This document shows, piece after piece, positions 3,163-56,911 of a stretch of 64,000 nucleotides of DNA (position 1 is its first letter; every line of letters starts with the position of its first letter). The stretch spans positions 163,536-227,535 of the forward strand of contig JBMNIZ010000015.1 of the NCBI GenBank assembly GCA_050951405.1. Reading direction: 5' to 3'. The stretch is from Bacillota bacterium (lineage in GTDB: Bacteria; Bacillota; DULZ01). Under the pieces are notes generated by a model that was not told where the DNA came from, searched no databases, and saw only the letters and a program-made list of their open reading frames with translations. The translations under genes were made by a program, and so were the position numbers.

Positions 3163-3193
3163 TCTTATTCACCTCCTTAATATCTAGGACCTT

Positions 3194-3508
3194 TTAGAGA
3201 AGCTCCTGCAGCTTTGCTTCCACATCTTCAATGGTGAAATCCTTGCTCAGTTCCGCTATTTTCTCACCTCCTCGATAAAAGGCGATGGTGGGAAGTCCTA
3301 AAACTTTTTGGCTGATGGACAGTCTTTTATTCCCCGCCGTATCCAGTTTGCAAAATTTAGCCTGGCCTGCGTATTTCTCCGCCAGGGCTTCCACCTCGGG
3401 CATCAAGGCCTGGCAGGGTTCACATTTAGGGCTCCAAAAATCTACCACCACTAAACCTCCAGCTTGTAGTACCTCCTGTTCAAAATTTTCCTTGTCCACG
3501 ATGACCAC
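3194..3508 (-). CDS. trxA: grd-associated thioredoxin with an atypical active site W-S-P-K-C-E-P-C
   Basis: Thioredoxin fold. The likely GTG start at 3506..3508 is preceded by GGAGGTG (104 aa). The tracked ORF extends to 3622 and overlaps the trxB 3' end. The active site is CEPC rather than the usual CGPC. Confidence 0.75.
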   Translation of the reverse strand: MVIVDKENFEQEVLQAGGLVVVDFWSPKCEPCQALMPEVEALAEKYAGQAKFCKLDTAGNKRLSISQKVLGLPTIAFYRGGEKIAELSKDFTIEDVEAKLQELL

Positions 3509-3572
3509 GTTTTTTTCACCTCCCCCTGGTAAGTCTCTTTTATCCTCATCCCCGCTCGGCAGGAGGGCTGGC

Positions 3573-4790: not shown

Positions 4791-4836
4791 GGGCTTACCT
4801 CCTTGATTTATACTTGATGTAACAGCAGCAGAAAGA

Positions 4837-5235
4837 TCAAAATCTTTTGCCCATCGCCGTAATTCCACTGGCTTGCAAGCTTTCTAAAGCGGCTTCTAAG
4901 AGAGAAAGATCGATCACCTGCAAGTCATGCAAGACCCTCGGCCCATGCTGCCTTGCAGGCCCGAATTTCTCCCAGGCAGCCAAGGCACTTTCGATTAACT
5001 GCAAAGAAGAGAAATCCACCAACTTCCTGTCTTTCCTTTTCTGCAAAAGAAGCGATTTGTAGGGGGTCTGGTTGGGCTTGATACTGCCCGCCAAAGGATG
5101 GGTAAGCAATTTATAGCCCTGATGAATGTAATTCCTGGCCCTGATCAGCACTTCCCATATCGGACCCTCGATAAACTCTCCTTGCGGATATTTTTCCAAA
5201 ACCAGGGGATTATTGCTGAGCAAGTACATCTTCAC
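4837..5235 (-). CDS. grdX: GrdX-like glycine reductase accessory protein
   Basis: 132 aa with a THPLAGSIKPNQTPYKSLLL motif. It is the first gene of the grd operon. Confidence 0.55.
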   Translation of the reverse strand: MKMYLLSNNPLVLEKYPQGEFIEGPIWEVLIRARNYIHQGYKLLTHPLAGSIKPNQTPYKSLLLQKRKDRKLVDFSSLQLIESALAAWEKFGPARQHGPRVLHDLQVIDLSLLEAALESLQASGITAMGKRF

Positions 5236-10548: not shown

Positions 10549-11637
10549 ATGGAAATTGCCAAAAACCCATTACCTCCCAGAAAGGAGCGTTCAAGTCTCA
10601 TGACCATTATACCATCAAACGTAGTATGTCCAAGGTGTTTTTCAAAAGTTCTTCACCGTTTTGGTAAGGACAAAGACGGTTTTCAAAGATATCAGTGTCA
10701 ACGATGCAAACGGCAGTTTGCACCTGATAAACCATGTTCACCAAGAAAAAGAATATATCCCGATTGTCCTGTTTGTGGTAAAGCAACTTTTCTTCACCAT
10801 GACTATACTTATTACTCAAACTTCCGTTGCTGTGACAAAAAATGCAACCATTCTTTTCGAGTACCAAAACTAATAAATGTTGAGACCCCTTCTTCCGAGT
10901 TTAAGCCTGAAACCTTTTCTTTTAAAGGTATGCGCCATCCGCTTCATATTGTTCTTCATGCACTGACTTACTACTTCTGCGGAAATTCAACAACCCGAAA
11001 AGTCGCTCAAACCTTACATATGGTTCACCAGGTTAAGGTTTCTCATGTAACTGTTTCTAAATGGATCAAGCGCTTTGCTCCTGTATTCAAGAAAATTGCT
11101 GATGACAGGCTTTTGGGGATTAATCTTTGTGATTCGGATGAATGGCATTTCGATGAAACTTATATTAAAATTGCTGGTAAAGATTATTACCTCTGGCTCG
11201 CTTTTGATGCAGAAACCAGATTAGTTCTTGACTTCAATCTTTCCCCTATGCGTGACTCGGCATCTGCCCATAGCCTTTTATCTAACTGCAGAAGAAAGTT
11301 TGGACAACCCCGGTATGCTGTCATCTCCGACAGATATTATGCCTATCTGCAGCCTGCTTCTTTGTTCTTTCCACAAGCTGAACATATACGCGTTGAAGAC
11401 TTTGATGACTTAATCAATAACAACGTTCTTGAGGCTTTTAATGGGCAATTTAAAGCTTGGTACAAACCTAAAAGAGGTTTTAATTCATTTGAATCTGCCA
11501 ATAGACTTATTGCTACTTACATCTTCTTCTACAACTTCATCCGACCTCATTCCAGCCTCAATGGTCTCACGCCAGCTCAAGTCGCTGGTGTGAACTACTC
11601 GGAAAAAGAACGGCTATTCTGGCTTTTGGTAGCTTGA
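10549..11637 (+). CDS. DDE transposase, IS6 (IS26-like) family, with an N-terminal Cys-rich zinc-ribbon extension
   Basis: The catalytic motifs align to the IS26 transposase: DETYIKIAGKDYYLWLAFD (D), VISDRYYAY (D) and NNNVLEAFNGQFK (E). The true start may be the downstream MTIIPSN. Confidence 0.8.
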   Translation: MEIAKNPLPPRKERSSLMTIIPSNVVCPRCFSKVLHRFGKDKDGFQRYQCQRCKRQFAPDKPCSPRKRIYPDCPVCGKATFLHHDYTYYSNFRCCDKKCNHSFRVPKLINVETPSSEFKPETFSFKGMRHPLHIVLHALTYYFCGNSTTRKVAQTLHMVHQVKVSHVTVSKWIKRFAPVFKKIADDRLLGINLCDSDEWHFDETYIKIAGKDYYLWLAFDAETRLVLDFNLSPMRDSASAHSLLSNCRRKFGQPRYAVISDRYYAYLQPASLFFPQAEHIRVEDFDDLINNNVLEAFNGQFKAWYKPKRGFNSFESANRLIATYIFFYNFIRPHSSLNGLTPAQVAGVNYSEKERLFWLLVA

Positions 11638-19789: not shown

Positions 19790-21100
19790 CTATCTATTCT
19801 AAGGAGTGGATAAAAAGCCCACCCCTAAGCTTGGGCTCAAACCAGGTGGATTTAGGGGGCATGACCTGGCCCGTGTCCGCAATGGACATCAGCTGCTTCA
19901 ATGCTGGCAGGAAACAAGGCAAAAGCCACCCCTCCTTCCTGCTCCACTCTCTTCTCCAGTTCTTCCAGGCCCCGGATCCCGCCGACAAAATCGATGCGAG
20001 GGTCAGTCCTGGGATCCTCAATCTCCTAAAACAGGTTCCAAGAGGTTGTTCTGGAGAATGGATTCACATCCAAGGGATTTGACCGGATCGGTCCGGTCAA
20101 AAGTGCCTTCCCTGGCCTTCCAAGCCGATACCAATCTGCCCCCCAGATACATCCCAAAAGTGTGAGGCTGCCGGGAGGCTGGATAAGCTTTACCCGGGCC
20201 GAGTCTTATCTGCCACCGCAAATTTTTCCTGCACTCTGGCCAGAAAAGTCTCCTTCGGTCAGGCCGTGCAGGTCTCTCACCACCCGGTTATAGGCCAGGA
20301 TCCGCAGTTCCCGGTGGGGAAAAAGGACGCCGAGAAAAGTAATTGATACTCTTCTCCGCACCTGTATAGCCGGGGTTCTGTTCCCGGCGGCAGCAAACCC
20401 ACCTGCACCGCCGCCGCCGTCCGGTGGTGCCCGTCGGCGATATAGAGATAATCCACCTGCCGGAACTCAGCCACCAGACCGTCGATAACGGGCGGGGCAT
20501 CGATCACCCAGGCCATGATGCCCAACCCCGTCGTCGGCAACAAAATCGTAGACCGGCTGCCTGGACCTCGGTCCAAGCAGTCATCATGGATTCTGGATCT
20601 TCTCCCGGAACCGGTAAGTCAAAAAAACGGCACCAGTCTGGGCATTGCAGGCATCCACATGTCTGAAAACGGTCCAGTCTCCTTGTCGGCCCTGGTGTGC
20701 TCATGTTTCTTGATTGTTCCCTGCAAATAGTCATCAATAGAGCAGCAGGCCACCAAGCCGGTTTGGGCTCCGCCGTCTTTGATCCAGCCGGTAGATGTAA
20801 AGACAATCTTCCTCATCCTGCCGGAGCACACCTTCCTGCACCAACCGGCTGTAAATTGCCAGCGGCCTCGGGCGTAAACTTGTCCGGTCGTAAGGGTCCA
20901 GAGCAGGATCCAGGTCGACCTCCGACTCTGCCTCACATGCAAAAAGGAAAAGGGATTGTCCCGGACCAGCACCCTGGCCTCCTCTCCGCACTCACCACAT
21001 CGTAGGGAGGAGCAGCCACCCGGTGGGCCAGACTCCGGCACCGGCCGCAGCGCCCTAAAGGATTTGATCAAGGCCACTTTCCTTTCCTCCTTCAGCAACA
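19790..21100 (-). pseudogene. DUF1015-family gene broken by at least three frameshifts
   Basis: DUF1015 motifs are spread over three frames: FRALRPVPE and NPFSFLHV (ORF 20619..21278), LYIYRLDQ (20734..20991), and YIADGHHRTAAA (20277..20576). Confidence 0.5.
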
Positions 21101-21118
21101 GGATGTTGAACAGTCTCT

Positions 21119-21741
21119 TCAAGCCGCTCGCCGAAAAAGCCTCCTGGCCCAGGGCCAGGGCCCGGAGATTGGCGGCCACCGTATGCCCGGGAACGCGCTC
21201 CCGGACGGATTCCACCAACAAATCCTCACCTGAAGGGCAGAAATCCTCCCGCCAGGGCAGCTCCCAGCATGACCACACTCATGGTCCGGGCATGGCCCGC
21301 TTTTTCCGCCAGCTCCGTCCCATTGATGACCACAACCTTTTTCCCCAGTTCCCTTCCAAAGCAGAAGCGATTTCCTCCAGAGCAGGATACCGGGCCTTTG
21401 CCAATCTGGACATCCATGGGCGGAAGAGGGGCTGCTGTTCAGAAGAGCCGCACCCTCCGGCGATAAATATTCCACCCCCACCCGCAGCCCTTCCAGGGGC
21501 TCCAGGGCTATGATCAGATCCGCCTCTCCCCGGTCGATCAGGGGGGCATAGACATCGCCAAAGCGCACATGGGAGGATACGGCACCGCCCCTCATGGCCG
21601 CACCAAAGGTCTCCCCCACCCGTACCCGGAATGGCCGTGGGATCCCGCTTCGCCAGTCTGCATGGCTGCACCGGCAACGATGCGGGCAGCCAGGATGCTG
21701 CCCTGCCCTCCCACGCCGGCAATAATCAGATCCATTTTCAT
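21119..21741 (-). pseudogene. iorB: Indolepyruvate:ferredoxin oxidoreductase beta subunit (iorB), frameshifted
   Basis: N-terminus MKMDLIIAGVGGQGSILAARIV is in one frame. HVRFGDVYAPLIDRGEADLIIALEPLEGLR is in a second frame. SVVMLGAALAGGFLPF is in a third. Confidence 0.6.
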
Positions 21742-23752
21742 GCCCCATTCCCTCCTCGTCTTCACCGCCCCCTGCCGGCAGACCTGCTCGCACAGGCTAC
21801 AGTCGGTACGCAGCTTTCCCCATCCACAGCCGCTTTCTTCCTCGCACCGCGTCGAAAGGCGACTGGCAGGGCACCCCAGGCGCAGGCAGCGCCTGCAACC
21901 ATCGCAAAGGGACTTCCTCCACCCAGGTCCTGCCCTCTCCTTTTTTTCTCCCTTCTCAACAGCTTGCAGCTGGCACTCACCCTCCAGAATGACCACGGAA
22001 GGGCCCCTCATCTGCGAGGGCCCTCTCCATGAGACGGGAGGCCTCCGCCAGTTGATAGGCATTGGCAACATGGAGACATTCTTCACTCCCAGGGCCCTGA
22101 CCACCCCTGCCATGTCGAAAGCCTCCCGTTTGCTCTCCCAGGGCGGTGGTCCCCGTAGCCGGGTTGGGCTGGTGACCGGTCATGGCCGTCCAGCGGTTGT
22201 CCAGAATCAAGAAAGTGAGATCTACGCTTGATTGTAGACGGCGTTGGTCACCGATGGTAAAAGAGCATGAATGAAGGTGGAATCCCCTGCCACCGCCACT
22301 ACCTTACCCTCCCGGTAGCCCGCCTGCACCTGTCCCTGGGCCAGACCCAGACCGCTTCCCATCACATGGATGGTATCCAGGATCTCGTAAGGCGAGCCTC
22401 ACCGGGTATTTCTTGCCGGGCAGCTTCGTTGGGTTCAATACCGGAGGCAAATAATCCATAGCCTCCCTGTTCGTAACAACCAATGTCCCCGTTGACAATA
22501 TGGTTGCCCGGGAATTTTCGCTTAAAGCTTCCCCCAGGGCCCAATAAGAACCCAGGTGGGAACACCCGGCACAGAGAGCCGAGGACCGGGGCGTCACCAG
22601 CTCCCTCAGCTTTTCCCGGGTCTTTTCCCTCTCATCCCCAGGGATTTCCAGTTTCAAAAGCTGGGAAAGGGCTTTTGTGACCAAACTGGTATTGATTTCC
22701 CCATAGGGAGGAAACACAGGGCGGTGGCTTTTCCCGTAAATGTTCAGGCTGCTAAATCTTCCCTGGGCATAGCTCCGCACAAGGTTCTCGATGACCGGAT
22801 CTCCTTCTTCCACAACAAGCAGAGTATCCACTCCTGGCAAGAGCTTGTCCAGTATGCTGTAAGGCAAGGGGTAAAAAAAGCCCAGCTGGAGAAAGCTGAC
22901 CCGGTCCTTAAGGCCCAGCCTGTCCAGAGCTTCTCTGGTGTAGCTGGCCCCAACCCCGGCGGCCAATACAGCCGTTGAAGCCCCAGGCACCAATTCCAGC
23001 CGGTTAAAGGGGCTGTTTTCAGCCAGCTCCCGAGCCTTGGGCAAAACCTGATGGAGCCAACGATGTTTGGCCAGAGGGCCGGGGGCACCGTAAACATTCC
23101 AGCGGTAAGGCAGTTTGTAGTGCTTATTAAAAGACAAGCTGTTCTTTTCTTCCTGGATCGGTCCCAGTTTCACATCACCGCTGGCATGAGAAATTCTGCT
23201 CACCGATCGGATAAAAACAGGCAGTTCGAGTATTTCTGAAATGCGGAAGGCCTCTCTGGTCATATCTTTGGCCTCTTGCTGATCGGCCGGTTCCAGGCAG
23301 GGTATTTCCGCATAAACTGCCGCCAGCCTGGTATCCTGTTCGCTGGAAGAATAGTGGGCATTAGGATCATCGGCCACCACCACCACCAGTCCTCCTTTGA
23401 CCCCTCCATAAGGCAAAGTCATGAAGGTGTCCATGGCCACGTTCAAACCGGCATTTTTCATGGCGGTCATGGCTCTGGCACCTACCAGGGAGGCTCCCGC
23501 AGCCAGCTCAAAGGCCACCTTTTCATTGGTGCTCCACTCCAAATGGTATGCTCCCTGCCGGGCTGCGGCAATCAAAGCTTCACAGATTTCCGAAGCAGGG
23601 GTGCCCGGATAAGCGGCCATTAACTGCAAACCGGCCTCCAGAGCACCCCGGGCAATAGCTTCATTGCCCATGAGCAGCACTCTTTCCCCCGCCGGTTGCA
23701 AAATAGCAATACTCAAGCACAATCTCTCCTTTCCGAACCGGCGCCGAAACAT
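21742..23752 (-). pseudogene. iorA: Indolepyruvate:ferredoxin oxidoreductase alpha subunit (iorA), broken by at least three frameshifts
   Basis: Frame 1 holds the TPP-binding N-terminus (GNEAIARG...ALCAGCSH). Frame 2 holds VNGDIGCYEQGG. Frame 3 holds ILDNRWTAMTGHQPNPATG. The ferredoxin-like Cys clusters are in the 21592..22113 frame. Confidence 0.65.
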
Positions 23753-23782
23753 CCTATCCCTTCGGCAATCCAGGTGTATTGA

Positions 23783-24951
23783 TTAAAACAGGATTTCCTG
23801 AGCCGTTTCCGTAAGAATGTCAGAAGCCAGCATCAAATGCTCCACAGGCACGTACTCATCCGGAGCATGGGCCTGGGCCAGATAACCGGGTCCAAAGGTG
23901 AGACAATGGGGCGTCCCTGTCCTGGCAGCCATAATGGCCCCGTCCGTATAAGCGGGAAAGCCGGCCAGTTCCGCCTCTCTGCCGGTTATTTTCTTCACCC
24001 CTTTGGTCACGGCCGCCAGCAGGGGCGAATCTTGCGGTATCCGCAGGGGAGGCCTTTCCACTCCCAGCACCCGGTAACTGCCCCTGGAACCGGGCACTTT
24101 CCCGGTCCCCTGGGCAATGGCCTTTTCCACCAGATGGCGACCCTGGGCTCACCGTCATGGGGACCGTCAGCCGCAGATCAGCCTCTGCCCGGCAGCTGTC
24201 AGGCACCATATTGACTTTCACACCGCCGCTAATCCGGCCCACATTCAAGGTGGCCTTCCCCAGCAGGGGATCCTCATAAGGCAGATCTGCCACCGAGTCT
24301 TTTCAAAGAGCTGATCACTTCCGCCATGGCATGGATAGCATCAACCCCTAGATGGGGTTTTCCCCCGTGGGCCATCTTCCCCTGGGTGCTAATTTCAAAC
24401 CAGAGGGGCCCTTTATGGGCGGCTACTACAGCCAAACCCGAGGGTTCAGCCGCCAGGAGAAAATCCTCGTCGGTCACCCAACCCTTTTCCACCGCCGCCA
24501 GAGCCCCCTGCATGAAGGGACCTTCTTCATCAACGCAGGCCAGAAAAATAAAACTGTGACGCGGTTTTTCCCGGCCCAGGCAGATTCTTTTAAAAGCTAC
24601 CAGGGCCGCGGCCAACCCTCCTTTCATATCCGCACTGCCTCGCCCGTACAATTTGCCCTGCTCCATTTCCCCGGCAAAAGGATCTTTGGTCCAGCCCTCT
24701 CCGGCGGGAACCGTATCCAGGTGCCCGGTATATACTAAACGGGGATGTTCTTTTACCCCGGCCAGCCGGGCCACCACGTTAAAACGGCCGGGCGCCACCT
24801 CTTCTTTTTTCACTTCCACACCCAGCCTTTGCAGCCAGTGAAAAACATAATTTCCCACAGCTTCCTCACTGCCGGTGGGATTCTCGCTGGGGATCTGCAC
24901 CAATTCCCGAGTCAATTGGATCACTTCAGCTTGAGCGGTCATTCCTGCCAA
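23783..24951 (-). pseudogene. M20-family metallopeptidase (DapE/ArgE-like) split into three frames
   Basis: The N-terminal catalytic domain is 24274..24951, the dimerisation domain is 23856..24293, and the C-terminus is 23783..24130, each in a different frame. Confidence 0.65.
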
Positions 24952-25159
24952 ACCTCCTACTTTAAGAACCGCAACTGCCTGGAAAATTTTCTTTCTATTT
25001 CCTGCACAGAGACAATTCCGGCAGTTCAGAGCATGTCCGGCCCGTCATGAATTACCTTCCTGCCGGGAATTTATTGTATTGTCCCCAACGGCAGGGAAAA
25101 TAATGTCACTTTACACTTCGCCGTCTCCGGAGGAATTCCTCCCCCTGGCCGGAAGAGAG

Positions 25160-25196
25160 GCAAAGACAAAAAGGCCCCTGAAACAGGGACCCAAAA
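25160..25196 (-). terminator. Intrinsic terminator after ipct/dipps (GGGUCCCUG-UUU-CAGGGGCC + UUUUUGUCUUU)
   Basis: Hairpin plus a U-tract on the minus-strand RNA. Confidence 0.4.
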
Positions 25197-25235
25197 GTTC
25201 CCGCATACGCATGGAAGGCTGGAAAAAGGCAGCCG

Positions 25236-26597
25236 TCAGGAGGCTAAAATTCCCCTGGCTTTAATCAATCGATAGATCACTTGCAGATTGGCCATCAGGG
25301 CAAGCAGCCACAAGGCGATAAACTCCAGATTGAAAATACCTCCCAGGGCGATGATGGCCAACCTGCCATCTCGATTGACCGGCAGATAACTTAGCCATCC
25401 CTCTTCTTGCGGGTAATATTCTTTTCCAGTCAGATTTTTCATCTTTTCTTTCGAAAGCATGGAAAGGGGCGAAGCCGCCAGGGCCAAAAAGGCCGGGAAA
25501 AGTGCCGCCTGCTGCCCTCCCTGAGCAAAAATCAGCCCGGCTGTCATCCCCCCGATTAAAAGGGCATCGCTATAACGGTCAATGATGGAGTCAAAATACG
25601 CGCCAAAAGCCGTCTCCTGATATTTTAGCCGGGCCACTTCCCCATCAACACCGTCGATAATGGAAGCGGTTTGGGCCAAAATGCCGCCCATGAAACCGAA
25701 GCCCAGGGCAAATAACAGGGAAGCAGCCAGGCACATGAGGCCGTTTATTGCCGAGTAAAAATTCGGTTTGAAGGGCAAGGACACCAGCAAAGAAGTCAAG
25801 CGCAAAGAAAGAGGCCGGTTGAAGTAGCGGGCCACCACCCCATCCCGGGGAGAAGCCAGCATGGATAAAAGCTTTTTCTTGGCAAGCTCCAGGTCTGCCG
25901 GCTCATCCACATCCAGCCAAAAGCAGTCTCCAATCTGAAAGGCCCGGAGATCTCCCCTGTCAAGCACCGGGGAAAGGGCTTGGCTCAAATTCCCCCAACC
26001 CTTTTCCACTGCACTGGCCAGCTCGGCCAGGACTGCCGGGGAAAAGCAAAAACAGCCGCAATCCACACCGTTAAAATCGCTGATGTTTTTCCCCAAAAGG
26101 CGGATTATCCCTTCCTCATCCACCTGAACCTTTGTGGCCTCCTCCAGTTGGTAAACTGACTGGAGCCGCCGGTCAACAGCCAAAAAAGCCTTGGCTTCCC
26201 CGTTTTTTTCTTCCTGTAAAAAATCAAGGAAAGAAGTCAGAAGTTTCGGTTCCAGCAAATGATCGGCCATCAGGACCAAAAACCTTTCTTCCCTGTCAAA
26301 GAAGGGAAGAGCGGCCAGGAGAGAGCCGGCATTGCCTTCCGGCCAGCGGGGGTTGTCGGCATAATCGATAGTCACCCCCCAGCGGCTGCCGTCCCGGCAG
26401 AAGTCCTTGATTTTCTGCCCTTGATAACCTGTCACAATAACAAAATCGGTTATGCCCGCTTTTTTGGCCGTCAGAATTGCCCTTTCAATTAAAGGCAACC
26501 CCAGAAGGGGCAGCAAGGGCTTGGGCAGATGACCGGAGCCTGCCGCATCCTTCATCCTTTCCCCAGCCCCGGCTGCCAGGATAACTGCCCGCATCAT
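25236..26597 (-). CDS. Bifunctional CTP:inositol-1-phosphate cytidylyltransferase / CDP-inositol:inositol-1-phosphate transferase (IPCT/DIPPS)
   Basis: N-terminal nucleotidyltransferase (AVILAAGAGERM, LPLLGLPLIER) fused to a CDP-alcohol phosphatidyltransferase TM domain carrying DGVDGEVARx8Gx3Dx3D. Confidence 0.8.
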   Translation of the reverse strand: MMRAVILAAGAGERMKDAAGSGHLPKPLLPLLGLPLIERAILTAKKAGITDFVIVTGYQGQKIKDFCRDGSRWGVTIDYADNPRWPEGNAGSLLAALPFFDREERFLVLMADHLLEPKLLTSFLDFLQEEKNGEAKAFLAVDRRLQSVYQLEEATKVQVDEEGIIRLLGKNISDFNGVDCGCFCFSPAVLAELASAVEKGWGNLSQALSPVLDRGDLRAFQIGDCFWLDVDEPADLELAKKKLLSMLASPRDGVVARYFNRPLSLRLTSLLVSLPFKPNFYSAINGLMCLAASLLFALGFGFMGGILAQTASIIDGVDGEVARLKYQETAFGAYFDSIIDRYSDALLIGGMTAGLIFAQGGQQAALFPAFLALAASPLSMLSKEKMKNLTGKEYYPQEEGWLSYLPVNRDGRLAIIALGGIFNLEFIALWLLALMANLQVIYRLIKARGILAS

Positions 26598-27688
26598 TAA
26601 CGCTCCCTTTTGCCTGCAATAAATTCTTCCACCATCTGTGCCGCCTCCCCATCGGTATACTGGACAGGCGGGCTTTTCATGGTATAGGCGGAAATGGAAG
26701 TGAGCACTCCTCCAATACCCCGATCAAGAGCCAGCTTCATACAGCGGATGGCATCCAGCATCACTCCGCCGCTGTTGGGAGCGTCCTCTACCGCCAGCTT
26801 TAATTCCAGGGTTAAAGGTACCTGGCCAAAACCAAGTCCATTCATATGGATATAACAGATCTTTTGATCATCCAACCAACGGATATAGTCGCTGGGGCCG
26901 ATATGAATATTTCCCGGGTCCAGGGGTGATGCCAGCTGGGACTGCACCGACTGAGTTTTGGATTTTTTCTTGGAAGCCAAGCGCTTATGATTAAGCATGT
27001 TCAGAAAATCCGTGTTGCCGCCGAAATTCAACTGATAAGTATTCTCCAGTTTCACCCCTCGTTTTTCAAAAAGATTGGTCAAGACCCGGTGAACAATGGT
27101 AGCCCCTACCTGACTTTTTACATCATCTCCGATAATGGGAATTTTCCGCCGGCGGAATTTCTCTTCCCACTCCGCGTCGGAAGCGATAAAAACGGGCATG
27201 GCATTAATAAAACCGATCCCGGCTTCCAGGCAAGCCTCCGCATAAAAACGGGCTCCTTCCTCGCTGCCCACAGGCAGATAGTTAATCAACATTTCGGCGC
27301 CGCTATCTTTTAATACTTTGACCACATCACAGGATTTGGCGTCTTTCACCTTAAAAGCCCTGGTGGCATCGAATTCCTCCATATGCGGGGAAACCCCGTC
27401 CAGGACCGGACCCATTTCCACTTTCACCTGGTAGTCGGGCATATCCGGCCAAAAAACTTTAGTACAATTGGGCTCGGCAAAAATTGCCTCTTTTAAATCA
27501 CGCCCGACTTTTCTTTCATCCACATCAAAAGCAGCTACCACTTCAATATCCTCCGGCCGGTAGCCGGCCAGTTCAGGATGCATCAATCCAACAGTATTTT
27601 CCGGATTGTTTTTGTAAAACTCAATTCCCTGCAAGAGAGCAGAGGCACAATTACCGATGCCTGCTAGAGCAATTTTGATCTTACCCAT
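26597..27688 (-). CDS. ino1: myo-Inositol-1-phosphate synthase (archaeal/thermophile type)
   Basis: Start MGKIKIALAGIGNCASALLQGIEFYK with an AGGAGGG RBS. About 364 aa. Its stop overlaps the ipct/dipps start. Confidence 0.85.
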   Translation of the reverse strand: MGKIKIALAGIGNCASALLQGIEFYKNNPENTVGLMHPELAGYRPEDIEVVAAFDVDERKVGRDLKEAIFAEPNCTKVFWPDMPDYQVKVEMGPVLDGVSPHMEEFDATRAFKVKDAKSCDVVKVLKDSGAEMLINYLPVGSEEGARFYAEACLEAGIGFINAMPVFIASDAEWEEKFRRRKIPIIGDDVKSQVGATIVHRVLTNLFEKRGVKLENTYQLNFGGNTDFLNMLNHKRLASKKKSKTQSVQSQLASPLDPGNIHIGPSDYIRWLDDQKICYIHMNGLGFGQVPLTLELKLAVEDAPNSGGVMLDAIRCMKLALDRGIGGVLTSISAYTMKSPPVQYTDGEAAQMVEEFIAGKRER

Positions 27689-27866
27689 CTGTCTACACCC
27701 TCCTAAAATTATTTTTGTCGGCAATCCACAGGGATCTTCCCCTTGCTGTCTAGGAAAAATGTAACTCAGGACAGATCATCAACTGCCCAACCACTTTCTT
27801 GCAGTTACAACATAGAATTTCACCTCCCCAGTTCAACAAAAAAGCCGCCCCGAGGGCAGCCCTTCT

Positions 27867-28688
27867 TTACTTCATACCAACCATATTAAGATCATAATCC
27901 TGGGCCTCCCCTGCAGTAAACAAAGTCAAGGTGCGAAAACCAGCCTGGAAGACCCTCTCTATTGCTTTTTCCAGATCTCGACCCAGGTCTTCTTCATGAT
28001 GGGCATCGGAACCAACAGTGACCCGCCTGCCTCCAAGCCTCCGAAATAGTTGCAGAGTCTCCAGACTGGGGAATGTATCGTTTATACCTTTCCGCAAAGC
28101 GGAAGTATTTACTTCCAAGGCCAGATCTTTTTTTACCATTTTTTCCAGTAAAGGCATAAGTTGGTATTCATAAAAACCTCTGGAATAGCTTCCTGGCGGC
28201 ACGGACCGGTGAAACCATTCCAGATGTCCGATTACCTGGAACAGACCTGAATCGATCATCTGATTGGTGGTCTGCAGATAATCGCCAATAAGCTTTTGCA
28301 CAGCTTCCTCTTCCGCACCTCCTATCCTTAAAGATAAAAGGCTTGTACCCTGCACGTAGTGGATGGCCCCCATGAGAAAATCAAAATTCCACCCGGCCAA
28401 ATAATTGGCCAGTTCCGCTTCCTGCCTGGGGTCGTAATCCACCTCCAGCCCCACTTTAATCTCCAATCGACCGGCAAAAAGCTCCCGGCAACGGTCCACT
28501 TCCTGAAAAATCAGGGTAAAATCCGTCAAACCATAATTGATATCAGCAGGATTGAGAGTAAAATGCTCCGTCAGGGCCAGCTCCGGTATACCCAGCTTCA
28601 CCGCCCGACGGCAGTACCCTTCCAGACTGGCGTCGCTATCCCGGGAGAATTCAGCGTGCAGATGATAGTCAGGTACTTTTAACAACAA
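27867..28688 (-). CDS. PHP-domain (histidinol-phosphatase-family) phosphoesterase
   Basis: Starts with the HLHAEFSRDS / ELALTEHF PHP motifs and is co-oriented with ino1-ipct/dipps. Confidence 0.7.
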   Translation of the reverse strand: MLLKVPDYHLHAEFSRDSDASLEGYCRRAVKLGIPELALTEHFTLNPADINYGLTDFTLIFQEVDRCRELFAGRLEIKVGLEVDYDPRQEAELANYLAGWNFDFLMGAIHYVQGTSLLSLRIGGAEEEAVQKLIGDYLQTTNQMIDSGLFQVIGHLEWFHRSVPPGSYSRGFYEYQLMPLLEKMVKKDLALEVNTSALRKGINDTFPSLETLQLFRRLGGRRVTVGSDAHHEEDLGRDLEKAIERVFQAGFRTLTLFTAGEAQDYDLNMVGMK

Positions 28689-28809
28689 AAAGCTTCACTC
28701 CAGTATCTCTCTTCATTAGCACTCACCAGGATTGATTGCTAACAGAATTATAGCACTGCCTGCCTTTTCTGTCAAACTGTGGATATGATCCTCTGTCCAG
28801 CCCAAGACC

Positions 28810-30057
28810 CTACTTCTGTTTAATTCTCTTCCCCTCCCGAAGGCCCGGTTGCCTGGGATCGGCAATAACCAGATCCCCTTCTTCCAGCCCTTTCTTGATC
28901 AACACTTCCCGGTCGGTCTCCAAACCGGTTTCCAGCTGCTGAATCTGCGCCTTTCCTTTTTTCACCACCCACACCGCCTTTCCTCCCTCATAGGCAAAGA
29001 CGGCTGCTTTGGGCACCAGCAGCACATTTTCCTCCCTCTCCAAAGTGAACCTCACCGTCAGCAGATATCCGGGATAAATGGTCAGACCCGCAGGTAAGCG
29101 GGGTTCAATTACAACCCGCACTCTCTGTTCCTCCAAGCCAAGAGGGGAAACGGTCTTTTCGGCAAAAGGAGCCACCTTTACTACAGTTCCCGGAAAAACC
29201 AGATCCTCATCCCTGTCGGTCTGGATCAGTTCCACTTCCATCCCGGGATAAAGAATTCCGGCGTCCTCCGTTAAAACAAAGCTTTCTACCTGATAATTCC
29301 CTTTCTGAAAGATACTCATCACTTGGGCACCAGGAGGAACCACTTCCCCTTTTTTCACCTGCAGCTGAGAAACAATACCGTCCAAAGGTGACAAAAGCCG
29401 AATGCCTTCCAGCTTATATTGCAGCAGGTCTATTTGGGCTTCCAAAGCCCTTTTCTTTCCGGCAAAAAACTGACGCAGGCCGCTGTCAGGCCGGTGAGAT
29501 TGCAGGAACAGAGACAGAGCTTGCTCTTGCTGTTCCAGATTGTTTTGGGCCGCCGAATAAACGGCCTGGGACTTCTCATATTCGCTTGCGGTCAACGCCC
29601 CTTCTTCATACAGTTTCTTTATTTTCTGCAGATTGGTCTCCGCTTCAGCCAAATCCCGGCGGGCCTGCTCTAATTGAAGCTCCAGGATTTTTACTTGTGC
29701 TTCATAAGGCTCATGCAAAGATTTCTTTTCCTCGCCGGCCAGTGCAGATAACTCGGATTGAAGTTGCTCCAGCTGCAGCTTTAGTTCCGTGTCGTCCAAT
29801 GACAAAAGCAGGTCTCCTTCCTTCACCTCCTGCCCATCGGTCACAGGCAATTCCGCAATCTTTCCCCCGGATAAAGTGCAGACTGCCAGCTCTAGCCGGG
29901 GGATGACCTTGCCTTCTTCCCGAATAGTCACGGCCAGGCTGCCCGTTTCCACCCGGACCAAGCCGGTTTCCAGCTCCTGCCCCAATCCGGAAATGAGCAC
30001 CAGCAGGACAATCAGGACCAGGACCGACACAAAGACAATCTTCCATTTTCTTTTCAT
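28810..30057 (-). CDS. HlyD-family periplasmic adaptor subunit
   Basis: N-terminal TM helix, a long coiled-coil and a beta-barrel. The start MKRKWKI has a GGAGAAGGTGAG RBS. Confidence 0.8.
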   Translation of the reverse strand: MKRKWKIVFVSVLVLIVLLVLISGLGQELETGLVRVETGSLAVTIREEGKVIPRLELAVCTLSGGKIAELPVTDGQEVKEGDLLLSLDDTELKLQLEQLQSELSALAGEEKKSLHEPYEAQVKILELQLEQARRDLAEAETNLQKIKKLYEEGALTASEYEKSQAVYSAAQNNLEQQEQALSLFLQSHRPDSGLRQFFAGKKRALEAQIDLLQYKLEGIRLLSPLDGIVSQLQVKKGEVVPPGAQVMSIFQKGNYQVESFVLTEDAGILYPGMEVELIQTDRDEDLVFPGTVVKVAPFAEKTVSPLGLEEQRVRVVIEPRLPAGLTIYPGYLLTVRFTLEREENVLLVPKAAVFAYEGGKAVWVVKKGKAQIQQLETGLETDREVLIKKGLEEGDLVIADPRQPGLREGKRIKQK

Positions 30058-33701: not shown

Positions 33702-34748
33702 GTGCTTTTTTTCCAAAGGGCGGCAACAAGGAAAAAGGTTTTGTGCCTGGCACTGTTTTGTATCTTGATCTTACCCATGATCGGTTGTTCATCAGAAACG
33801 GAAACAACAGGCGGAGATGACCAGAAGCAGACGATTGTTTTGGCAGACGCCAGCTGGGACAGCATCCAGGTCCATAACCGCATCGTGGGTTTCATCCTGG
33901 AAAATGGCTATGGCTACCCGGTGGACTATCTTTTCGGGGAAACATTACCTCTCCTCCAGGGACTGCGCAACGGCGATGTTCAGATCTACATGGAGATTTG
34001 GGCGGACAACATTTTAGAAGCCTGGGAAAAAGCGCTGAACGAAGGCAGCGTGCAAAACTTGGGGGTTAATTTTCCTGACGCACCTCAAGGTTGGTATGTG
34101 CCCACCTACCTCATCCAAGGGGATCCGGCCAGAGGATTAGAGCCTGTAGCTCCCGATTTAAAATCCGTCTTCGATCTGCCCCGCTATAAAGATCTTTTCC
34201 CAGATCAGGAAGTATCATCCAAAGGGCGTTTCCATAACAGCCCCCCGGGATGGGTCTGCACCGCCATCAACGAAGAAAAAATTGCCGCTTACGGTCTTGA
34301 TGAACATTTTAATATATTCAGCACCGGATCCGATACTGCTCTGGTAACATCCATGGTCAGCGCTTACGAAAAAGGCGAGCCCTGGCTCGGTTACTACTGG
34401 GAGCCCACCTGGGTCATGGGTAAACTGGATATGACCCGGCTGGAAGAACCCGCTTACAGCCAGGAGGTCTGGGATCAGGATAAAGCTTGTGCCTACCCCT
34501 TTGCCAGGGTATTTAAAGGCATTCACTCCGGTTTGCGGGACCAAGCCCCGGAAATTATCGATTTTCTGGAAAAATACGAAACAAGCCTGGACCAAAATAA
34601 TGATATGCTCTCTTATCTCATAGACGTGGACGGGGACACAGAAAAAGCCGCTGTCTACTTTTTGAAAAACTATCCTGAAGTCTGGCAGAGCTGGCTGCCG
34701 GAGGAGTTGGTGGCCAAAGTGGAAACCGCTTTAAATGAGGTGGACTAA
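33702..34748 (+). CDS. Glycine betaine/proline ABC transporter substrate-binding lipoprotein (OpuAC/ProX-like)
   Basis: GTG start with an AAGGGAGG RBS and a lipobox (LPMIGC). Confidence 0.8.
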   Translation: MLFFQRAATRKKVLCLALFCILILPMIGCSSETETTGGDDQKQTIVLADASWDSIQVHNRIVGFILENGYGYPVDYLFGETLPLLQGLRNGDVQIYMEIWADNILEAWEKALNEGSVQNLGVNFPDAPQGWYVPTYLIQGDPARGLEPVAPDLKSVFDLPRYKDLFPDQEVSSKGRFHNSPPGWVCTAINEEKIAAYGLDEHFNIFSTGSDTALVTSMVSAYEKGEPWLGYYWEPTWVMGKLDMTRLEEPAYSQEVWDQDKACAYPFARVFKGIHSGLRDQAPEIIDFLEKYETSLDQNNDMLSYLIDVDGDTEKAAVYFLKNYPEVWQSWLPEELVAKVETALNEVD

Positions 34749-35645
34749 ATGAAAAATCCCTTTGAAATATTAATTGAAGTGATTGATTTGTGGAAAGTGT
34801 TTGGTGCCCCTCCAAATACCGATGTGCGTGAAGCGGTGGAGCTGGCCAAACAAGAGAAGAAAAACGGCCTTGTCTGCGCCGTCCGCGCTGTTTCCTTTCA
34901 AGTGAGAAGAGGAGAAGTCTTTGTGATCATGGGCCTGTCCGGCAGCGGCAAGTCAACTCTGATTCGCTGCTTGGCCCGTTTGATCGAGCCCAGCTCCGGT
35001 CAAGTCCTGGTTAACGGCCGGGATGTGGTTTCCATGGGGAGCCAATCCTTGACGGAATTCCGCCGGAGGGAAATTGCCATGGTTTTTCAACATTATGGCC
35101 TGCTGCCTCACCGGACGGTTCTGGAAAACGTGCATTTCGGCTTAAAATTACGGGGCGAGAAGCGCGCTGCCAGAGAAGAAAAAGCAATAGAGGTCATCCA
35201 ACAAGTAGGTCTTTCCGGCTGGGAAAACCACTATCCCCACCAGCTTTCCGGCGGGATGCGCCAGCGAGTGGGCATTGCCAGGGCTCTGGTTCAGGATACG
35301 GAAATATTGCTGATGGACGAACCCTTTAGCGGCTTGGATCCATTGATCAGAAGGGAAATGCAAGACGAATTGCTCAGACTGCAGAAGGAGTTTCAAAAAA
35401 CCATTATTTTTGTCACCCATGACTTAAGCGAAGCCCTTCGCTTGGGAAACCGCATGGCAGTGATGAAAGAAGGCAGTTTTGTCCAGATCGGCACTCCCGG
35501 CGAAATAGTAGCCAATCCTGCCGACGATTATGTCAGACGTTTTGTCCAGGACGAAAGGAAACTGATGCATCTGCAAGAAGGAAAAGTGGAGCATCTGAAT
35601 CTGAAAAGAGATCATTTGCAATCTCTAAAAAATGTCATGCCTTGA
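34749..35645 (+). CDS. Glycine betaine/proline ABC transporter ATPase (OpuAA/ProV-like, no CBS pair)
   Basis: Walker A (GLSGSGKST) and signature (LSGGMRQRVGIARAL) motifs. Confidence 0.85.
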   Translation: MKNPFEILIEVIDLWKVFGAPPNTDVREAVELAKQEKKNGLVCAVRAVSFQVRRGEVFVIMGLSGSGKSTLIRCLARLIEPSSGQVLVNGRDVVSMGSQSLTEFRRREIAMVFQHYGLLPHRTVLENVHFGLKLRGEKRAAREEKAIEVIQQVGLSGWENHYPHQLSGGMRQRVGIARALVQDTEILLMDEPFSGLDPLIRREMQDELLRLQKEFQKTIIFVTHDLSEALRLGNRMAVMKEGSFVQIGTPGEIVANPADDYVRRFVQDERKLMHLQEGKVEHLNLKRDHLQSLKNVMP

Positions 35646-36511
35646 TTGGTGGTGAAAACATGTTTCCGGAAGCGCTGTCTTTTACCGTGGCTCCTTATAT
35701 TGACATCTTTGTAGACTGGTTAAAAGCTGCAGGCGGTCCTCTCTTTTCCGCCTTTTCCGATACGGTCTTGGCCTTTCTGCTGAAAATCGAAGCTTTTTTA
35801 CTGGTTACTCCCTGGTGGATCTGGATTGCCGTTGTGATCTTCATTAGTTGGTGGCAAACGCGCCGCTGGTGGAACTCACTAGGCTTGGGGCTGCTTTTAA
35901 TCACTATTGGAGTTTTGGGTCTATGGGACGTGACCATGAAAACCCTGGCCATAGTCATTGTTTCGGTGTTGATTTCCATCTTGCTGGGCATACCGCTGGG
36001 TATGACTATGGCCGAATCAAATCGCTTTAATGCGGCTGTCACCCCGCTCCTGGACGCTATGCAAACCATGCCCAGCTTTGTTTACCTGATCCCGGCCATG
36101 ATGTTGTTTCACCTGGGCAAAGTACCGGCCATAGTAGCTACAGTGATCTATGCTTTGCCTCCTGTGGTTCGCCTCACCAATCTGGGCATACGACAGGTAG
36201 CGTCCACAATTCAAGAAAGTGCCATAGCTTTTGGGGCGACCCGCTGGCAGCTAATCAAAGAAGTACGATTACCCTTAGCCGTCCCTTCCATCATGGCCGG
36301 CATTAACCAGACAACCATGATGGCCTTATCCATGGTGGTGATCTGCAGCATGATCGGCGCCGGAGGCTTGGGGCAAAAGGTACTGGTCGCCACCAATCAT
36401 ATTGCCGTTGGAGACGGTTTTGAAGCCGGCTGGGCAATTGTGGCTCTGGCCATTGTCATCGATCGCCTCACACAAGGGCTGATCAAAAAATGGGAAATAC
36501 CACAGGCTTAA
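35642..36511 (+). CDS. Glycine betaine/proline ABC transporter permease (OpuAB/ProW-like)
   Basis: BPD-transport inner-membrane component with translational overlap with the ATPase gene. Confidence 0.85.
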   Translation: MIGGENMFPEALSFTVAPYIDIFVDWLKAAGGPLFSAFSDTVLAFLLKIEAFLLVTPWWIWIAVVIFISWWQTRRWWNSLGLGLLLITIGVLGLWDVTMKTLAIVIVSVLISILLGIPLGMTMAESNRFNAAVTPLLDAMQTMPSFVYLIPAMMLFHLGKVPAIVATVIYALPPVVRLTNLGIRQVASTIQESAIAFGATRWQLIKEVRLPLAVPSIMAGINQTTMMALSMVVICSMIGAGGLGQKVLVATNHIAVGDGFEAGWAIVALAIVIDRLTQGLIKKWEIPQA

Positions 36512-44799: not shown

Positions 44800-46006
44800 A
44801 TGAGCACTTTCAGACTGCGAATTGAATTTGAAGACCGGACCAAAATGGTCCTGGACACCAGCAAAGCCATTGCTAAATATGATTTAAACATTACCGCACT
44901 GGAAGTCCTACCTAACCTGATGTATTTTGAACTGCAGCACAATAACGGGGACGACCAGGTCAAGCAGAAATTGATCCTGGACCTGGCCTCCATCCCCAAT
45001 ATCCTCAAAGTGGAAGAAGTAAAATACAGTCCCCATTTGATAGATAATGATAATGCCTTTTCTTCATTGATCGGCGAAAGTGAAGGCCTGCGCAAGGCTG
45101 TTTTCCAGGCGAAACTCGTGGCCAAAAGCTCCTGTACGGTGCTGATCCAGGGGGAAAGCGGAACCGGGAAGGATCTTTTAGCCAAAGCCATTCATCTGGC
45201 CAGCGAGAGGGGGGACCAAACCCTTTTATCCCATCAACTGTGCAGCCTTTCCGGAAAGCCTTTTGGAAAGCGAGCTCTTCGGTTATGAAGAAGGCACTTT
45301 TAGCGGTGCCCTCAAAGGAGGCAAGGCCGGACTTTTTGAAGTGGCCAGCGGCAGTACTCTTTTCCTGGATGAAGTAGGAGATCTTTCTTTAAACACTCAG
45401 GCCAAACTTCTCCGGGTACTCCAAGAGAAAAAGATCCGCCGCATCGGAGGTTATAAAGAAAAAGAGGTTGATGTACGCATCATCGCTGCCACCAACCGGA
45501 ATCTCCTGCAAATGGTCCAAAAGGGAGAATTCCGCCACGACCTTTACTATCGCTTAAACGTGGTCCCCATTGAAATTCCGGCTTTGCGGCACCGCCGGGC
45601 CGATATTCCGCTCCTGGCCGAATACTTTTTGGCTAAATATGCCCAGCGCACTTCCACCATTCCCAAAACCCTCACAGCCAGGGCCTTAGCCTACTTGATC
45701 AATTATGACTGGCCTGGCAACGTGCGGGAACTGGAAAATATGATCGAAAGGGCCATCAACCTGACGCCTGGCCTGATCATCGACATCGAGAGTTTGCACT
45801 TTGAAAAAGAAAATTACATTTCTTTACTCCCAGATGAAGGAAAACCTCTCAAAACCCTGGTCAGGGCTTACGAAGGACGTCTCATCGATGAAGCCGTAAA
45901 AAAACACGGATCCATCAGAAAAGCAGCCAAGGCTCTGGGCCTCTCCCATACAGGTCTCCTGAAAAAGTTAAAAAATTTGCAAAAACAAGTTCCCAGAGAT
46001 TCCTGA
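44800..46006 (+). pseudogene. Sigma-54-dependent transcriptional activator (ACT-like N-terminal domain, AAA+ and HTH), frameshifted at about 45225
   Basis: ORF 44800..45288 carries [18 protein letters not shown] 45263..46006 carries [15 protein letters not shown]...GNVRELEN. The correct frame is restored by a 1-nt change in an aggggggac G-run. Confidence 0.7.
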
Positions 46007-56875: not shown

Positions 56876-56911
56876 GAGTGGAAAAAAGGACGAAAATGGG
56901 CATAATAGACA

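Follow-up and report, generated by a model that had tools for sequence, protein, structure and literature searches.

The locus analysed here raises the question of which enzyme removes the last phosphate in the synthesis of di-myo-inositol-phosphate (DIP). DIP is a textbook solute of hyperthermophiles that protects against heat and salt, and its synthase is well studied; to our knowledge, the phosphatase acting on its precursor, DIP-phosphate (DIPP), has so far been attributed only to promiscuous inositol monophosphatases (IMPases). In the window (the whole 64-kb stretch of DNA that was analysed) three open reading frames are confirmed on the minus strand: a PHP-domain phosphatase (27867-28688), ino1 (26597-27688) and a fused IPCT/DIPPS gene, ipct/dipps (25236-26597), all 100% identical to independent public contigs, with no mismatches or gaps over 25-36 kb. 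The pair of DIP genes, ino1 and ipct/dipps, is ordinary and known; the interesting part of the locus is the PHP neighbour, which the initial annotation put forward as a candidate dedicated DIPP phosphatase. Our preferred reading, whose chances we judge to be evenly balanced, is that of a three-gene DIP module in which the linked HisJ-family PHP protein acts as the DIPP phosphatase.

The product of ino1 (26597..27688, minus strand) is a predicted myo-inositol-1-phosphate (inositol-3-phosphate) synthase of 363 aa. The open reading frame at 26597-27724 matches Inos-1-P_synth (PF01658) with 116.8 bits, and its product matches inositol-3-phosphate synthase of M. tuberculosis (PDB 1GR0, E = 3e-117) and, at 438 bits and under the equivalog cutoff of 638, TIGR03450, a model named mycothiol_INO1. 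The TTG at 27724 is merely the start of the longest open reading frame, and the ATG at 27688 is the better one: it lies 9 nt after AGGAGG, yields the 363-aa product as called on public contigs, and agrees with the N-termini of ino1 homologues. Because ino1 starts at this ATG and not at the TTG, the gap to the PHP gene is 178 bp instead of the 140 bp first given, while the adjacency and shared orientation of the two genes stand. The stop codon of ino1 and the start codon of ipct/dipps share one base (gcgtTAATGATGcgg; TAATG), with AGGGAG 5 nt upstream, bearing out the translational coupling that had been claimed for the pair.

The PHP gene (27867..28688, minus strand) has a TTG start and encodes a 273-aa HisJ-family PHP-domain protein, by its Pfam, TIGR01856 and PDB matches a predicted metal-dependent phosphomonoesterase and, by its conserved position, a candidate DIPP phosphatase. 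The PHP domain match (PF02811, 69.6 bits) covers the model fully (1-164 of 164), and the protein aligns full-length, at 26-27% identity, with its best PDB matches, the solved histidinol phosphatases (HolPases) 4GC3 of L. lactis (E = 1e-24) and 2YXO of T. thermophilus (E = 7e-20). Membership of the IMPase-type DIPP phosphatase family was considered and rejected, the fold being PHP and not PF00459. A more serious alternative is that the protein is the genome's housekeeping histidinol-phosphate phosphatase (HisJ/HisK), next to ino1 by inherited gene order and with no role in DIP synthesis. It could be so because Firmicutes are expected to use PHP-type HolPases, which as a rule are encoded away from his operons (PMC5516325, PMC9798254). 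In keeping with this, the protein scores 125.7 bits on hisJ_fam (TIGR01856), above the cutoff of 90.2, and retains H9, H11, D17, H42, E82, H110, H155, D228 and H230, which are identical in L. lactis HPP and invariant within the clade. These nine residues we take to be the ligands of the trinuclear metal centre that Ghodge et al. reportedly described in 2013. On the HisJ equivalog NF005996, however, the score is 69.4 bits, under the cutoff of 133 (other DIP-linked PHPs, those of L006, L009 and L011, score 75.7-93.1), and a family-conserved Asp two residues past the H42 equivalent (D44 in L. lactis), present in 104 of the 115 unlinked members of the family, gives way to Thr throughout the 8 clade A proteins (Thr44 in the window) and by Ser in Calderihabitans. 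Thr140 likewise occupies the position of a family Glu found in 85 of the 115 unlinked homologues; each of the two validated enzymes, those of T. thermophilus and L. lactis, also departs from the family at one of positions 44 and 140. Neither his genes nor a second PHP gene were found within the 64-kb window.

Expression signals of its own would also suit a housekeeping gene. Upstream of the PHP gene, in a 121-bp gap past an HlyD-family gene ending at 28810, lies a sigma-70-type promoter-like site with an extended -10 element (28747..28775, minus strand; TTGACA-17-TATAAT with a TG extension, matching the hexamer consensus at 12/12 positions). Straight after the PHP stop codon, folding gives an intrinsic-terminator-like hairpin of 13 bp with loop UCG, followed by a U-run (27838..27866, minus strand); the surrounding 73-nt stretch (27800-27872) folds at -22.6 kcal/mol (z = -1.8), and the hairpin is also present in an 83%-identical relative (L086). 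The terminator scan gave the PHP-ino1 hairpin on the plus strand only (27852-27864). Given the promoter before it and the hairpin and U-run after it, the PHP gene is probably a transcription unit separate from ino1-ipct/dipps. For the latter, a weak and tentative promoter can be read from the sequence (27809..27836, minus strand; TTGAAC-16-TATGTT, 8/12 match), under the scan threshold and with hexamers kept in L086, which would leave a leader of ~120 nt; a further intrinsic-terminator-like hairpin, with a 9-bp stem of 6 GC pairs and then TTTTGTCTTT, lies 44 bp past the ipct/dipps stop (25172..25192, minus strand).

Against a merely inherited order stands the recurrence of the linkage in other genomes. 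Of 16 Bacillota-type loci, 11 have a hisJ-family PHP gene directly beside ino1-ipct/dipps, versus 0 of 76 loci of other phyla (Fisher p = 8e-11, kinship among loci being ignored), so that the co-occurrence check suggested by the initial annotation came out positive in Bacillota, where the linked PHP genes come in two arrangements and from no fewer than two lineages. The order PHP-ino1-ipct/dipps is found in the window and in L086/P0122, L006 (identical to L087), L158, L159, L088, L166 and L165; the block is kept in at least 8 lineages with unrelated, wholly reshuffled flanks, and PHP identity to that of the window falls to 31-41%. (L165 is from Calderihabitans maritimus, a cultured thermophile.) In the second order (L009, L011, L167), ino1-ipct/dipps is followed by a convergent PHP gene 22-90 bp away; L009 and L011 have no other gene in common at E < 1e-8, and the called neighbours of L167 differ too. 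Neighbour-joining bootstraps recover clade A as monophyletic in 95/100 replicates and clade B (L009/L011/L167) in 100/100, and group A with B in 0/100, which argues for at least two PHP recruitments; the independent events still total just two or three. Under random gene order, a family of one to three copies would show two or more independent juxtapositions by chance with a probability of ~6e-5 to 5e-4. All PHPs in the metagenome scan that are at least 38% identical to that of the window and have readable context precede ino1, versus 0 of ~65 matches at 36% identity or less, and no clade-A-like PHP was found outside the ino1 context among protein database matches or metagenome contigs. On the other side, no PHP gene was seen in the visible flanks of five related Bacillota DIP loci (L008, L163, L164, L168, L169), and a Pelotomaculum PHP at an unrelated locus, adjoining DnaD and not DIP genes, shares 49% identity with that of clade B. 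Weighing these, we consider a purely housekeeping HolPase unlikely, if far from negligible. Conserved linkage thus favours the PHP protein as a DIPP phosphatase, and the word 'dedicated' goes too far in view of the hisJ_fam score, the terminator before ino1, the five Bacillota loci with no PHP nearby and the unlinked Pelotomaculum relative.

The ipct/dipps product (25236..26597, minus strand; 453 aa) is predicted from Pfam, 4MND, NCBIfam and motif matches to combine an N-terminal CTP:inositol-1-phosphate cytidylyltransferase with a C-terminal membrane CDP-alcohol phosphotransferase. NTP_transferase (PF00483) matches residues 4-243 with 73.6 bits, and CDP-OH_P_transf (PF01066) scores 36 bits. 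The IPCT domain has the GxGxR loop, A8, G10, R14 and K26 are invariant across 30 homologues, and the best PDB matches of this domain are 4JD0 (a nucleotidyl transferase, presumably the T. maritima IPCT; E = 1e-18) and the A. fulgidus IPCT 2XME (E = 8e-14). The previously reported motif DGx2ARx8Gx3Dx3D is indeed found, as D315-G-V-D318-G319-E-V-A322-R323-x8-G332-x3-D336-x3-D340. The fusion is collinear end to end with the A. fulgidus IPCT/DIPPS 4MND (residues 1-440 versus chain 40-444, E = 1e-35), and its top NCBIfam match is the IPCT/DIPPS equivalog NF041135 (query 2-445 versus model 1-414 of 419), so that the assignment of ino1 and the fusion as a DIP-pathway signature, already made in the initial annotation, is supported by homology. 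The NF041135 score of 225.8 bits is under the cutoff of 580, as expected of a bacterial member, since the model was built for Thermococcales.

That score would also fit a fusion that is not a DIPP synthase and that turns CDP-inositol or another CDP-alcohol into some other product, such as glycerophosphoinositol or an inositol phospholipid of the kind made by Rhodothermus marinus or by the alternative pathway proposed for Bacteroides/Prevotella, with no DIP being made. Its C-terminal domain is nearer to AF2299 (95.7 bits), an enzyme whose substrates are not settled, than to AfDIPPS (55.7 bits); homologues have a very wide distribution across lineages for which no DIP accumulation is known; and lipid synthesis from CDP-inositol has been established or put forward elsewhere (PMC9246714, citing Jorge et al. 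2015). We nevertheless regard such a product as improbable. Besides its full-length collinearity with AfIPCT/DIPPS, the fusion is without the extra C-terminal helices reported for lipid-acceptor enzymes (PMC4634129). Across 30 homologues R409-D-G-R412 (RDGR) is invariant and R443 is kept in at least 90%, with R409/R412 aligning to RDER in AfDIPPS and RDFR in AF2299; in PIP synthases an RxxR motif holds the phosphate of the acceptor (PMC4634129), and the conserved arginines of the fusion may be equivalent to R153/R191 of RsPIPS. A recurrent phosphohydrolase, be it PHP, HD or IMPase, is moreover better explained by a DIPP-type product, because direct transfer from CDP-inositol to a lipid yields no phosphorylated intermediate.

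In other phyla, a DUF4202/HD hydrolase lies beside ipct/dipps in 35 of 81 loci (34 of them immediately downstream on the same strand) and an IMPase in 7, always immediately upstream, while just 30 of the 81 have ino1 as a neighbour. PHP, DUF4202/HD and IMPase never occur as two types at one locus (49 loci with full flanks), a pattern that fits non-orthologous displacement of the DIPP phosphatase. Somewhat more tentatively than for the PHP protein itself, we propose that three unrelated families fill the last step of DIP synthesis: HisJ-type PHP in Bacillota, recruited at least twice, DUF4202/HD in the majority of the other bacterial phyla and in certain archaea, and IMPase in a minority. That the PHP protein instead acts on inositol monophosphates or sugar phosphates in general, like an IMPase, and frees myo-inositol from the Ino1 product for other uses, might be argued from the tight linkage to ino1, which the PHP gene directly precedes, from the action of archaeal and Thermotoga IMPases on both inositol-1-phosphate and DIPP, and from the window, in which no IMPase (PF00459) or DUF4202 homologue was found, but we think it very doubtful: such an enzyme would drain the pathway, since DIP synthesis needs only inositol-1-phosphate, the clade B PHP abuts ipct/dipps and not ino1, and in other phyla the HD and IMPase genes stay with ipct/dipps also at loci without a neighbouring ino1.

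With the PHP protein as DIPP phosphatase, Ino1 would convert glucose-6-phosphate to L-myo-inositol-1-phosphate, the N-terminal domain of the fusion would form CDP-inositol from inositol-1-phosphate and CTP, and the C-terminal six-helix membrane domain would join CDP-inositol to a second inositol-1-phosphate to give DIPP, from which the PHP protein, as a trinuclear-metal phosphomonoesterase, would remove the terminal phosphate to leave DIP. We infer the first three steps from translational coupling and from what is known of characterised homologues, and the fourth from the conserved neighbourhood and the other phosphohydrolases that occupy the same slot elsewhere. The PHP gene would be transcribed from its own strong promoter as far as its own terminator, and ino1-ipct/dipps would form a separate, translationally coupled unit behind its leader; because the units are separate, the phosphatase may be constitutive and the synthase genes regulated.

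The genes had also been taken to argue for a thermophilic host. By themselves they are no proof of thermophily, because relatives of the DIP pair occur in at least 574 matched stretches of GTDB species-representative genomes, including Zixibacteria, Nitrospinota, Cytophagia and Dadabacteria, with many lineages not known as thermophiles, and ipct/dipps alone is thus no marker of a hot habitat; it has been published from non-thermophilic deep-sea Thaumarchaeota (PMC8397731). A moderately thermophilic host is plausible on the independent evidence of amino-acid composition, the window having an IVYWREL value of 0.416, which roughly suggests ~55 C. The lineage-specific conserved partners provide concrete DIPP phosphatase candidates, PHP in Bacillota and DUF4202/HD in most other phyla, with cultured organisms at hand for both (Calderihabitans maritimus and Microbulbifer thermotolerans, respectively), and the label 'histidinol-phosphatase HisJ family' in Bacillota would cover proteins of different likely role. 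If the proposal is true, the PHP clade of the window has the first non-histidinol function within the HisJ subfamily, the previously uncharacterised DUF4202 gains its first function, and the breadth of the module implies that DIP-type solutes are made far beyond hot environments.

Compared with known systems, the fusion has in common with the A. fulgidus IPCT/DIPPS (4MND; 2XME) and 4JD0 the domain order, GxGxR, D1xxD2G1xxAR...G2xxxD3xxxD4, a late RDxR and linkage to ino1; it differs in being only ~30% identical, in a membrane domain nearer to AF2299, and in its host, a Bacillota MAG that is probably a moderate thermophile and not a hyperthermophile. In 2007, Rodionov et al. and Rodrigues et al. 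reportedly described, for T. maritima, a DIP operon whose DIPP phosphatase belongs to the IMPase family (via PMC8397731). The logic of MIPS, IPCT/DIPPS and a phosphatase encoded nearby is common to both loci, but the neighbour here is a PHP (beta/alpha)7-barrel, predicted to hold a trinuclear metal site, and its fold has no kinship with that of IMPases. The BEPIS of Rhodothermus marinus and the NTP-transferase, CDP-AP and HAD cluster of Bacteroides vulgatus/Prevotella likewise bring together ino1, a cytidylyltransferase, a CDP-alcohol phosphotransferase and a hydrolase; in the Bacteroidetes clusters the NTP transferase and CDP-AP are encoded as two proteins, accompanied by a HAD hydrolase (PMC9246714), whereas here a single protein carries both domains, the architecture of DIPPS enzymes, and is collinear with AfIPCT/DIPPS over its whole length. 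The PHP HolPases (L. lactis HPP 4GC3, T. thermophilus 2YXO, B. subtilis HisJ) belong to the same family as the window's protein, with similar length and the nine putative ligands kept, but are free-standing, whereas the latter is fixed beside ino1. The HolPase step is itself filled by HAD, PHP and IMPase families, some IMPase-fold enzymes being HolPases (PMC9798254, PMC5516325), and so provides a precedent for unrelated folds at one small-molecule phosphatase step; what we propose here would be the mirror image, a HolPase fold taking on IMPase-like work with an inositol phosphate as substrate.

Three open reading frames on the minus strand of the window (25236-28688) encode, from upstream to downstream, a PHP-domain protein, myo-inositol-1-phosphate synthase (ino1), and a protein of 453 residues (25236-26597, minus strand) in which a cytidylyltransferase is fused to a CDP-alcohol phosphotransferase (IPCT/DIPPS). 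The fusion described in the initial annotation is borne out: both domains are present (NTP_transferase, 73.6 bits; CDP-alcohol phosphatidyltransferase, 36 bits), the motif DGx2ARx8Gx3Dx3D occurs as D315xxD318G319xxA322R323-x8-G332-x3-D336-x3-D340, and the A. fulgidus IPCT/DIPPS structure 4MND can be aligned with the protein along its entire length (E = 1e-35). For the N-terminal half the best matches are A. fulgidus IPCT (2XME) and 4JD0, which we take to be the T. maritima IPCT, and the best NCBIfam model for the fusion is the Thermococcales IPCT/DIPPS equivalog, which matches over the full length with 225.8 bits, where the clade-specific cutoff is 580. Ino1 matches PF01658 (116.8 bits) and M. 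tuberculosis 1GR0 (E = 3e-117). Its stop codon shares one base with the ATG of ipct/dipps (TAATG) and AGGGAG lies close upstream, so the translational coupling claimed for this pair is real. A better start for ino1 is the ATG at 27688, which has AGGAGG 9 nt upstream, yields the 363-residue product annotated on public contigs, and fits the N-termini of homologues. The PHP gene does lie upstream in the same orientation, but with this start the intervening gap widens to 178 bp rather than the 140 bp first assigned to it.

The PHP protein (273 residues; 27867-28688, minus strand) exceeds the hisJ_fam subfamily threshold (125.7 versus 90.2 bits), reaches no equivalog threshold, aligns over its full length with the histidinol phosphatases of L. 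lactis and T. thermophilus, and keeps nine of nine putative metal ligands. The main rival to a dedicated phosphatase for di-myo-inositol phosphate (DIP) synthesis is that this is a plain housekeeping histidinol-phosphate phosphatase, an enzyme that Firmicutes are expected to encode as a PHP-type protein outside his operons (PMC5516325, PMC9798254). In a data-driven column comparison of family members, suggestive only as to specificity, a family-conserved Asp by the third metal His is replaced by Thr in all DIP-linked PHPs of the window type (clade A) and by Ser in Calderihabitans, and a family Glu is absent from all three DIP-linked PHP lineages. These alterations hint at a changed pocket, in a family whose validated histidinol phosphatases each depart as well at one of the two positions.

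Association of PHP genes with ipct/dipps elsewhere was surveyed in 80 GTDB loci retrieved with an IPCT/DIPPS profile, and the survey was extended through the nearest protein homologues and by scanning metagenomes. Only three of the 80 have a hisJ-family PHP within 4 kb of ipct/dipps (L006, L009 and L011), all of them among the closest, Bacillota-type relatives of the window locus. The order PHP-ino1-ipct/dipps recurs in the closest relative (L086/P0122; PHP 83% identical to that of the window), in L006 (= L087; 39%), L158 (P0123; 39%), L159 (P0124; 41%), L088 (38%) and L166 (P0003; 40%), and in the cultured thermophile Calderihabitans maritimus KKC1 (L165; PHP at 245-1108, 31%), with unrelated flanking genes in every case. 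In a second arrangement, found in L009, L011 (Pelotomaculum sp. DTU098) and L167, a convergent PHP gene follows ino1-ipct/dipps after 22-90 bp; L009 and L011 have the three-gene block alone in common, and the called neighbours of L167 are different too. No PHP was found in the visible flanks of five related loci (L008; L163, Dethiobacteria; L164, Peptococcaceae; L168, Calditerricola; L169); in L008, a tblastn check of the 0.47 kb that follow ipct/dipps also turned up no convergent PHP. In the metagenome scan, queried with the PHP clade, every match of at least 38% identity with readable context was followed by ino1, as against none of the ~65 at 36% identity or less. Co-occurrence holds within the Bacillota-type loci (11 of 16, versus 0 of 76 others; Fisher p = 8e-11, inflated by relatedness); calculated more cautiously, the chance that two independent juxtapositions arise under random gene order is ~6e-5 to 5e-4.

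Neighbour-joining bootstraps keep clade A (95/100) apart from clade B, the PHPs of L009, L011 and L167 (100/100), with A+B recovered in 0/100 and A+Calderihabitans in 7/100, so that at least two PHP lineages became attached to DIP genes. A single clade for all DIP-linked PHPs was rejected (A+B+C together in 0/100 bootstraps). The clade B PHP has a 49%-identical counterpart in Pelotomaculum that lies beside DnaD-like genes, not DIP genes, and this lineage may be a housekeeping enzyme that is by chance linked, or has become linked, to DIP genes.

To our knowledge, every step in DIP synthesis has its own enzyme except the dephosphorylation of DIP-phosphate (DIPP). When all open reading frames within 4 kb of ipct/dipps were clustered across 81 loci, 35 loci proved to have a protein of ~190 residues matching DUF4202 (PF13875) and HD (PF01966), with conserved H, HD, H, HE and D positions (L029:9310-9903, L054:9307-9885 and 33 other loci, L012-L080). 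In 34 of these 35 its gene is the next one downstream of ipct/dipps and has the same orientation, with a start that overlaps the ipct/dipps stop in several, e.g. L029. It is found in many phyla, with the cultured Microbulbifer thermotolerans DSM 19189 (L054) among its hosts, and we rate this uncharacterised protein as a strong candidate DIPP phosphatase. An IMPase gene (PF00459) is immediately upstream of ipct/dipps, same strand, in 7 of the 81 loci. The 49 loci with full flanks divide into 21 with HD, 3 with IMPase, 4 with PHP and 21 with none, and in 0/49 do two types occur together; the window has no IMPase or DUF4202 homologue. Mutually exclusive, unrelated phosphohydrolases on one synthase look like what is expected where a single step has undergone non-orthologous displacement. 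Also found repeatedly beside ipct/dipps (L020, L023, L058, L064, L065, L076) are GH130 phosphorylase-like and GT1/GT4 glycosyltransferase genes, which may serve a glycosylated DIP derivative, e.g. mannosyl-DIP. In C. maritimus, a GT4 glycosyltransferase, a GDE/MGH-like glycoside hydrolase and a Glyco_transf_20 (trehalose-6-phosphate-synthase-like) gene directly 3' of ipct/dipps (L165:4154-8683) suggest a compatible-solute island in a cultured thermophile.

We hypothesize, from homology, that Ino1 converts glucose-6-phosphate to inositol-1-phosphate, that the N-terminal domain of the fusion would join this with CTP to give CDP-inositol, and that the membrane domain would transfer CDP-inositol to a second inositol-1-phosphate, giving DIPP; the PHP enzyme, placed here from gene neighbourhood only, would then release DIP. 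A second rival is that the PHP protein is an IMPase-like enzyme acting on inositol-1-phosphate instead. Lastly, the fusion might make something other than DIPP, since lipid synthesis that depends on CDP-inositol has been described or proposed (PMC9246714) and the membrane domain scores better against AF2299 than against AfDIPPS, but the fusion lacks the extra helices reported for lipid-acceptor enzymes and keeps an invariant RxxR motif (PMC4634129), and direct transfer to a lipid would leave a phosphatase superfluous.

The PHP gene is probably monocistronic, because it has its own predicted promoter, a perfect consensus with extended -10, and a 13-bp hairpin with U-run directly 3' of its stop (27838-27866) that is kept in the closest relative. 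For the ino1-ipct/dipps pair there is a separate, weak promoter-like site, followed by a leader of ~120 nt, and a terminator-like hairpin lies at 25172-25192. In the ino1 leader (27689-27830, minus strand) the Shine-Dalgarno pairs nearly completely with a UUUUUCCUA stretch upstream of it (probability unpaired 0.06 at 37 C, 0/100 shuffles as low; 0.20 at 70 C), and a block of 63 nt is identical in L086. An RNA thermometer or sequestering leader as a general feature was rejected: there is little melting by 70 C, and among 14 related loci the signal is weak or absent, nominal in L165 alone (z -1.6, 4/100 shuffles; others z -1.1 to +1.7). An Rfam scan of 24900-29000 (E <= 1) gave no match. Conservation of the PHP-ino1 spacer against L086 (90% identity) is just marginally above that of the coding parts (87.5-89%), which is no strong argument for a regulatory RNA.

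Across 41 proteins of the window the IVYWREL fraction is 0.416, or ~55 C by the regression of Zeldovich et al. 2007, which reportedly relates this fraction to growth temperature; a moderately thermophilic host is thus plausible independently of the DIP genes. The proteins of the DIP locus are found on contigs of several metagenomes and in NCBI MAGs labelled Bacillota bacterium, and several related DIP loci are from biogas or digester assemblies. Thermophily had been argued from the DIP genes themselves, an argument that we abandon: IPCT/DIPPS relatives were confirmed in at least 574 of 600 matched stretches from species-representative genomes, including, among the matches listed, Zixibacteria, Nitrospinota, Cytophagia, Acidobacteriota, Dadabacteria and many others, and ipct/dipps has been reported in deep-sea Thaumarchaeota that are not thermophilic (PMC8397731).

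At 5 kb upstream of the DIP genes, an ABC transporter for glycine betaine of the OpuAC type (binding protein, ATPase, permease; 33702-36511, plus strand) is encoded. It is unlikely to belong to an osmoadaptation island: relatives do not keep it beside their DIP genes, and betaine is possibly a substrate because the window also encodes a glycine/betaine reductase, so that the transporter may serve betaine catabolism, not osmoprotection. The GrdB gene (glycine/sarcosine/betaine reductase; 53-1357, minus strand) contains a TGA in frame at 311-313, in the motif ST-U-GTCTRCG, as expected for its selenocysteine codon; after it come genes for a GrdE-like protein, thioredoxin and thioredoxin reductase (1876-4868). 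Compared with near-identical public contigs (L001, L002), 19890-24300 has ~75 single-base insertions and ~200 mismatches, confined to this patch, and zero occur in 25-36 kb. With GC up to 0.56-0.60 and fragmented genes for an M20 peptidase, 2-oxoacid:ferredoxin oxidoreductase subunits and DUF1015, it looks like an unpolished low-quality assembly patch, not biology. Elsewhere on the plus strand are an IS-type DDE transposase (IS240/IS66-like domains; 10549-11637), a sigma-54 activator split in two overlapping open reading frames (44800-46006; a frameshift is possible), and smpB followed by a tmRNA gene (56261-57265; tmRNA 56913-57265, tag AKENYALAA).

Searchable literature on DUF4202, on PHP with DIP, and on Calderihabitans with inositol yielded nothing relevant. 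The DIP gene pair of the window is an ordinary example of something already known; the Bacillota-specific PHP partner and the three-way hydrolase pattern, which were not met with in the searchable literature, would be of moderate interest as a result of comparative genomics only.
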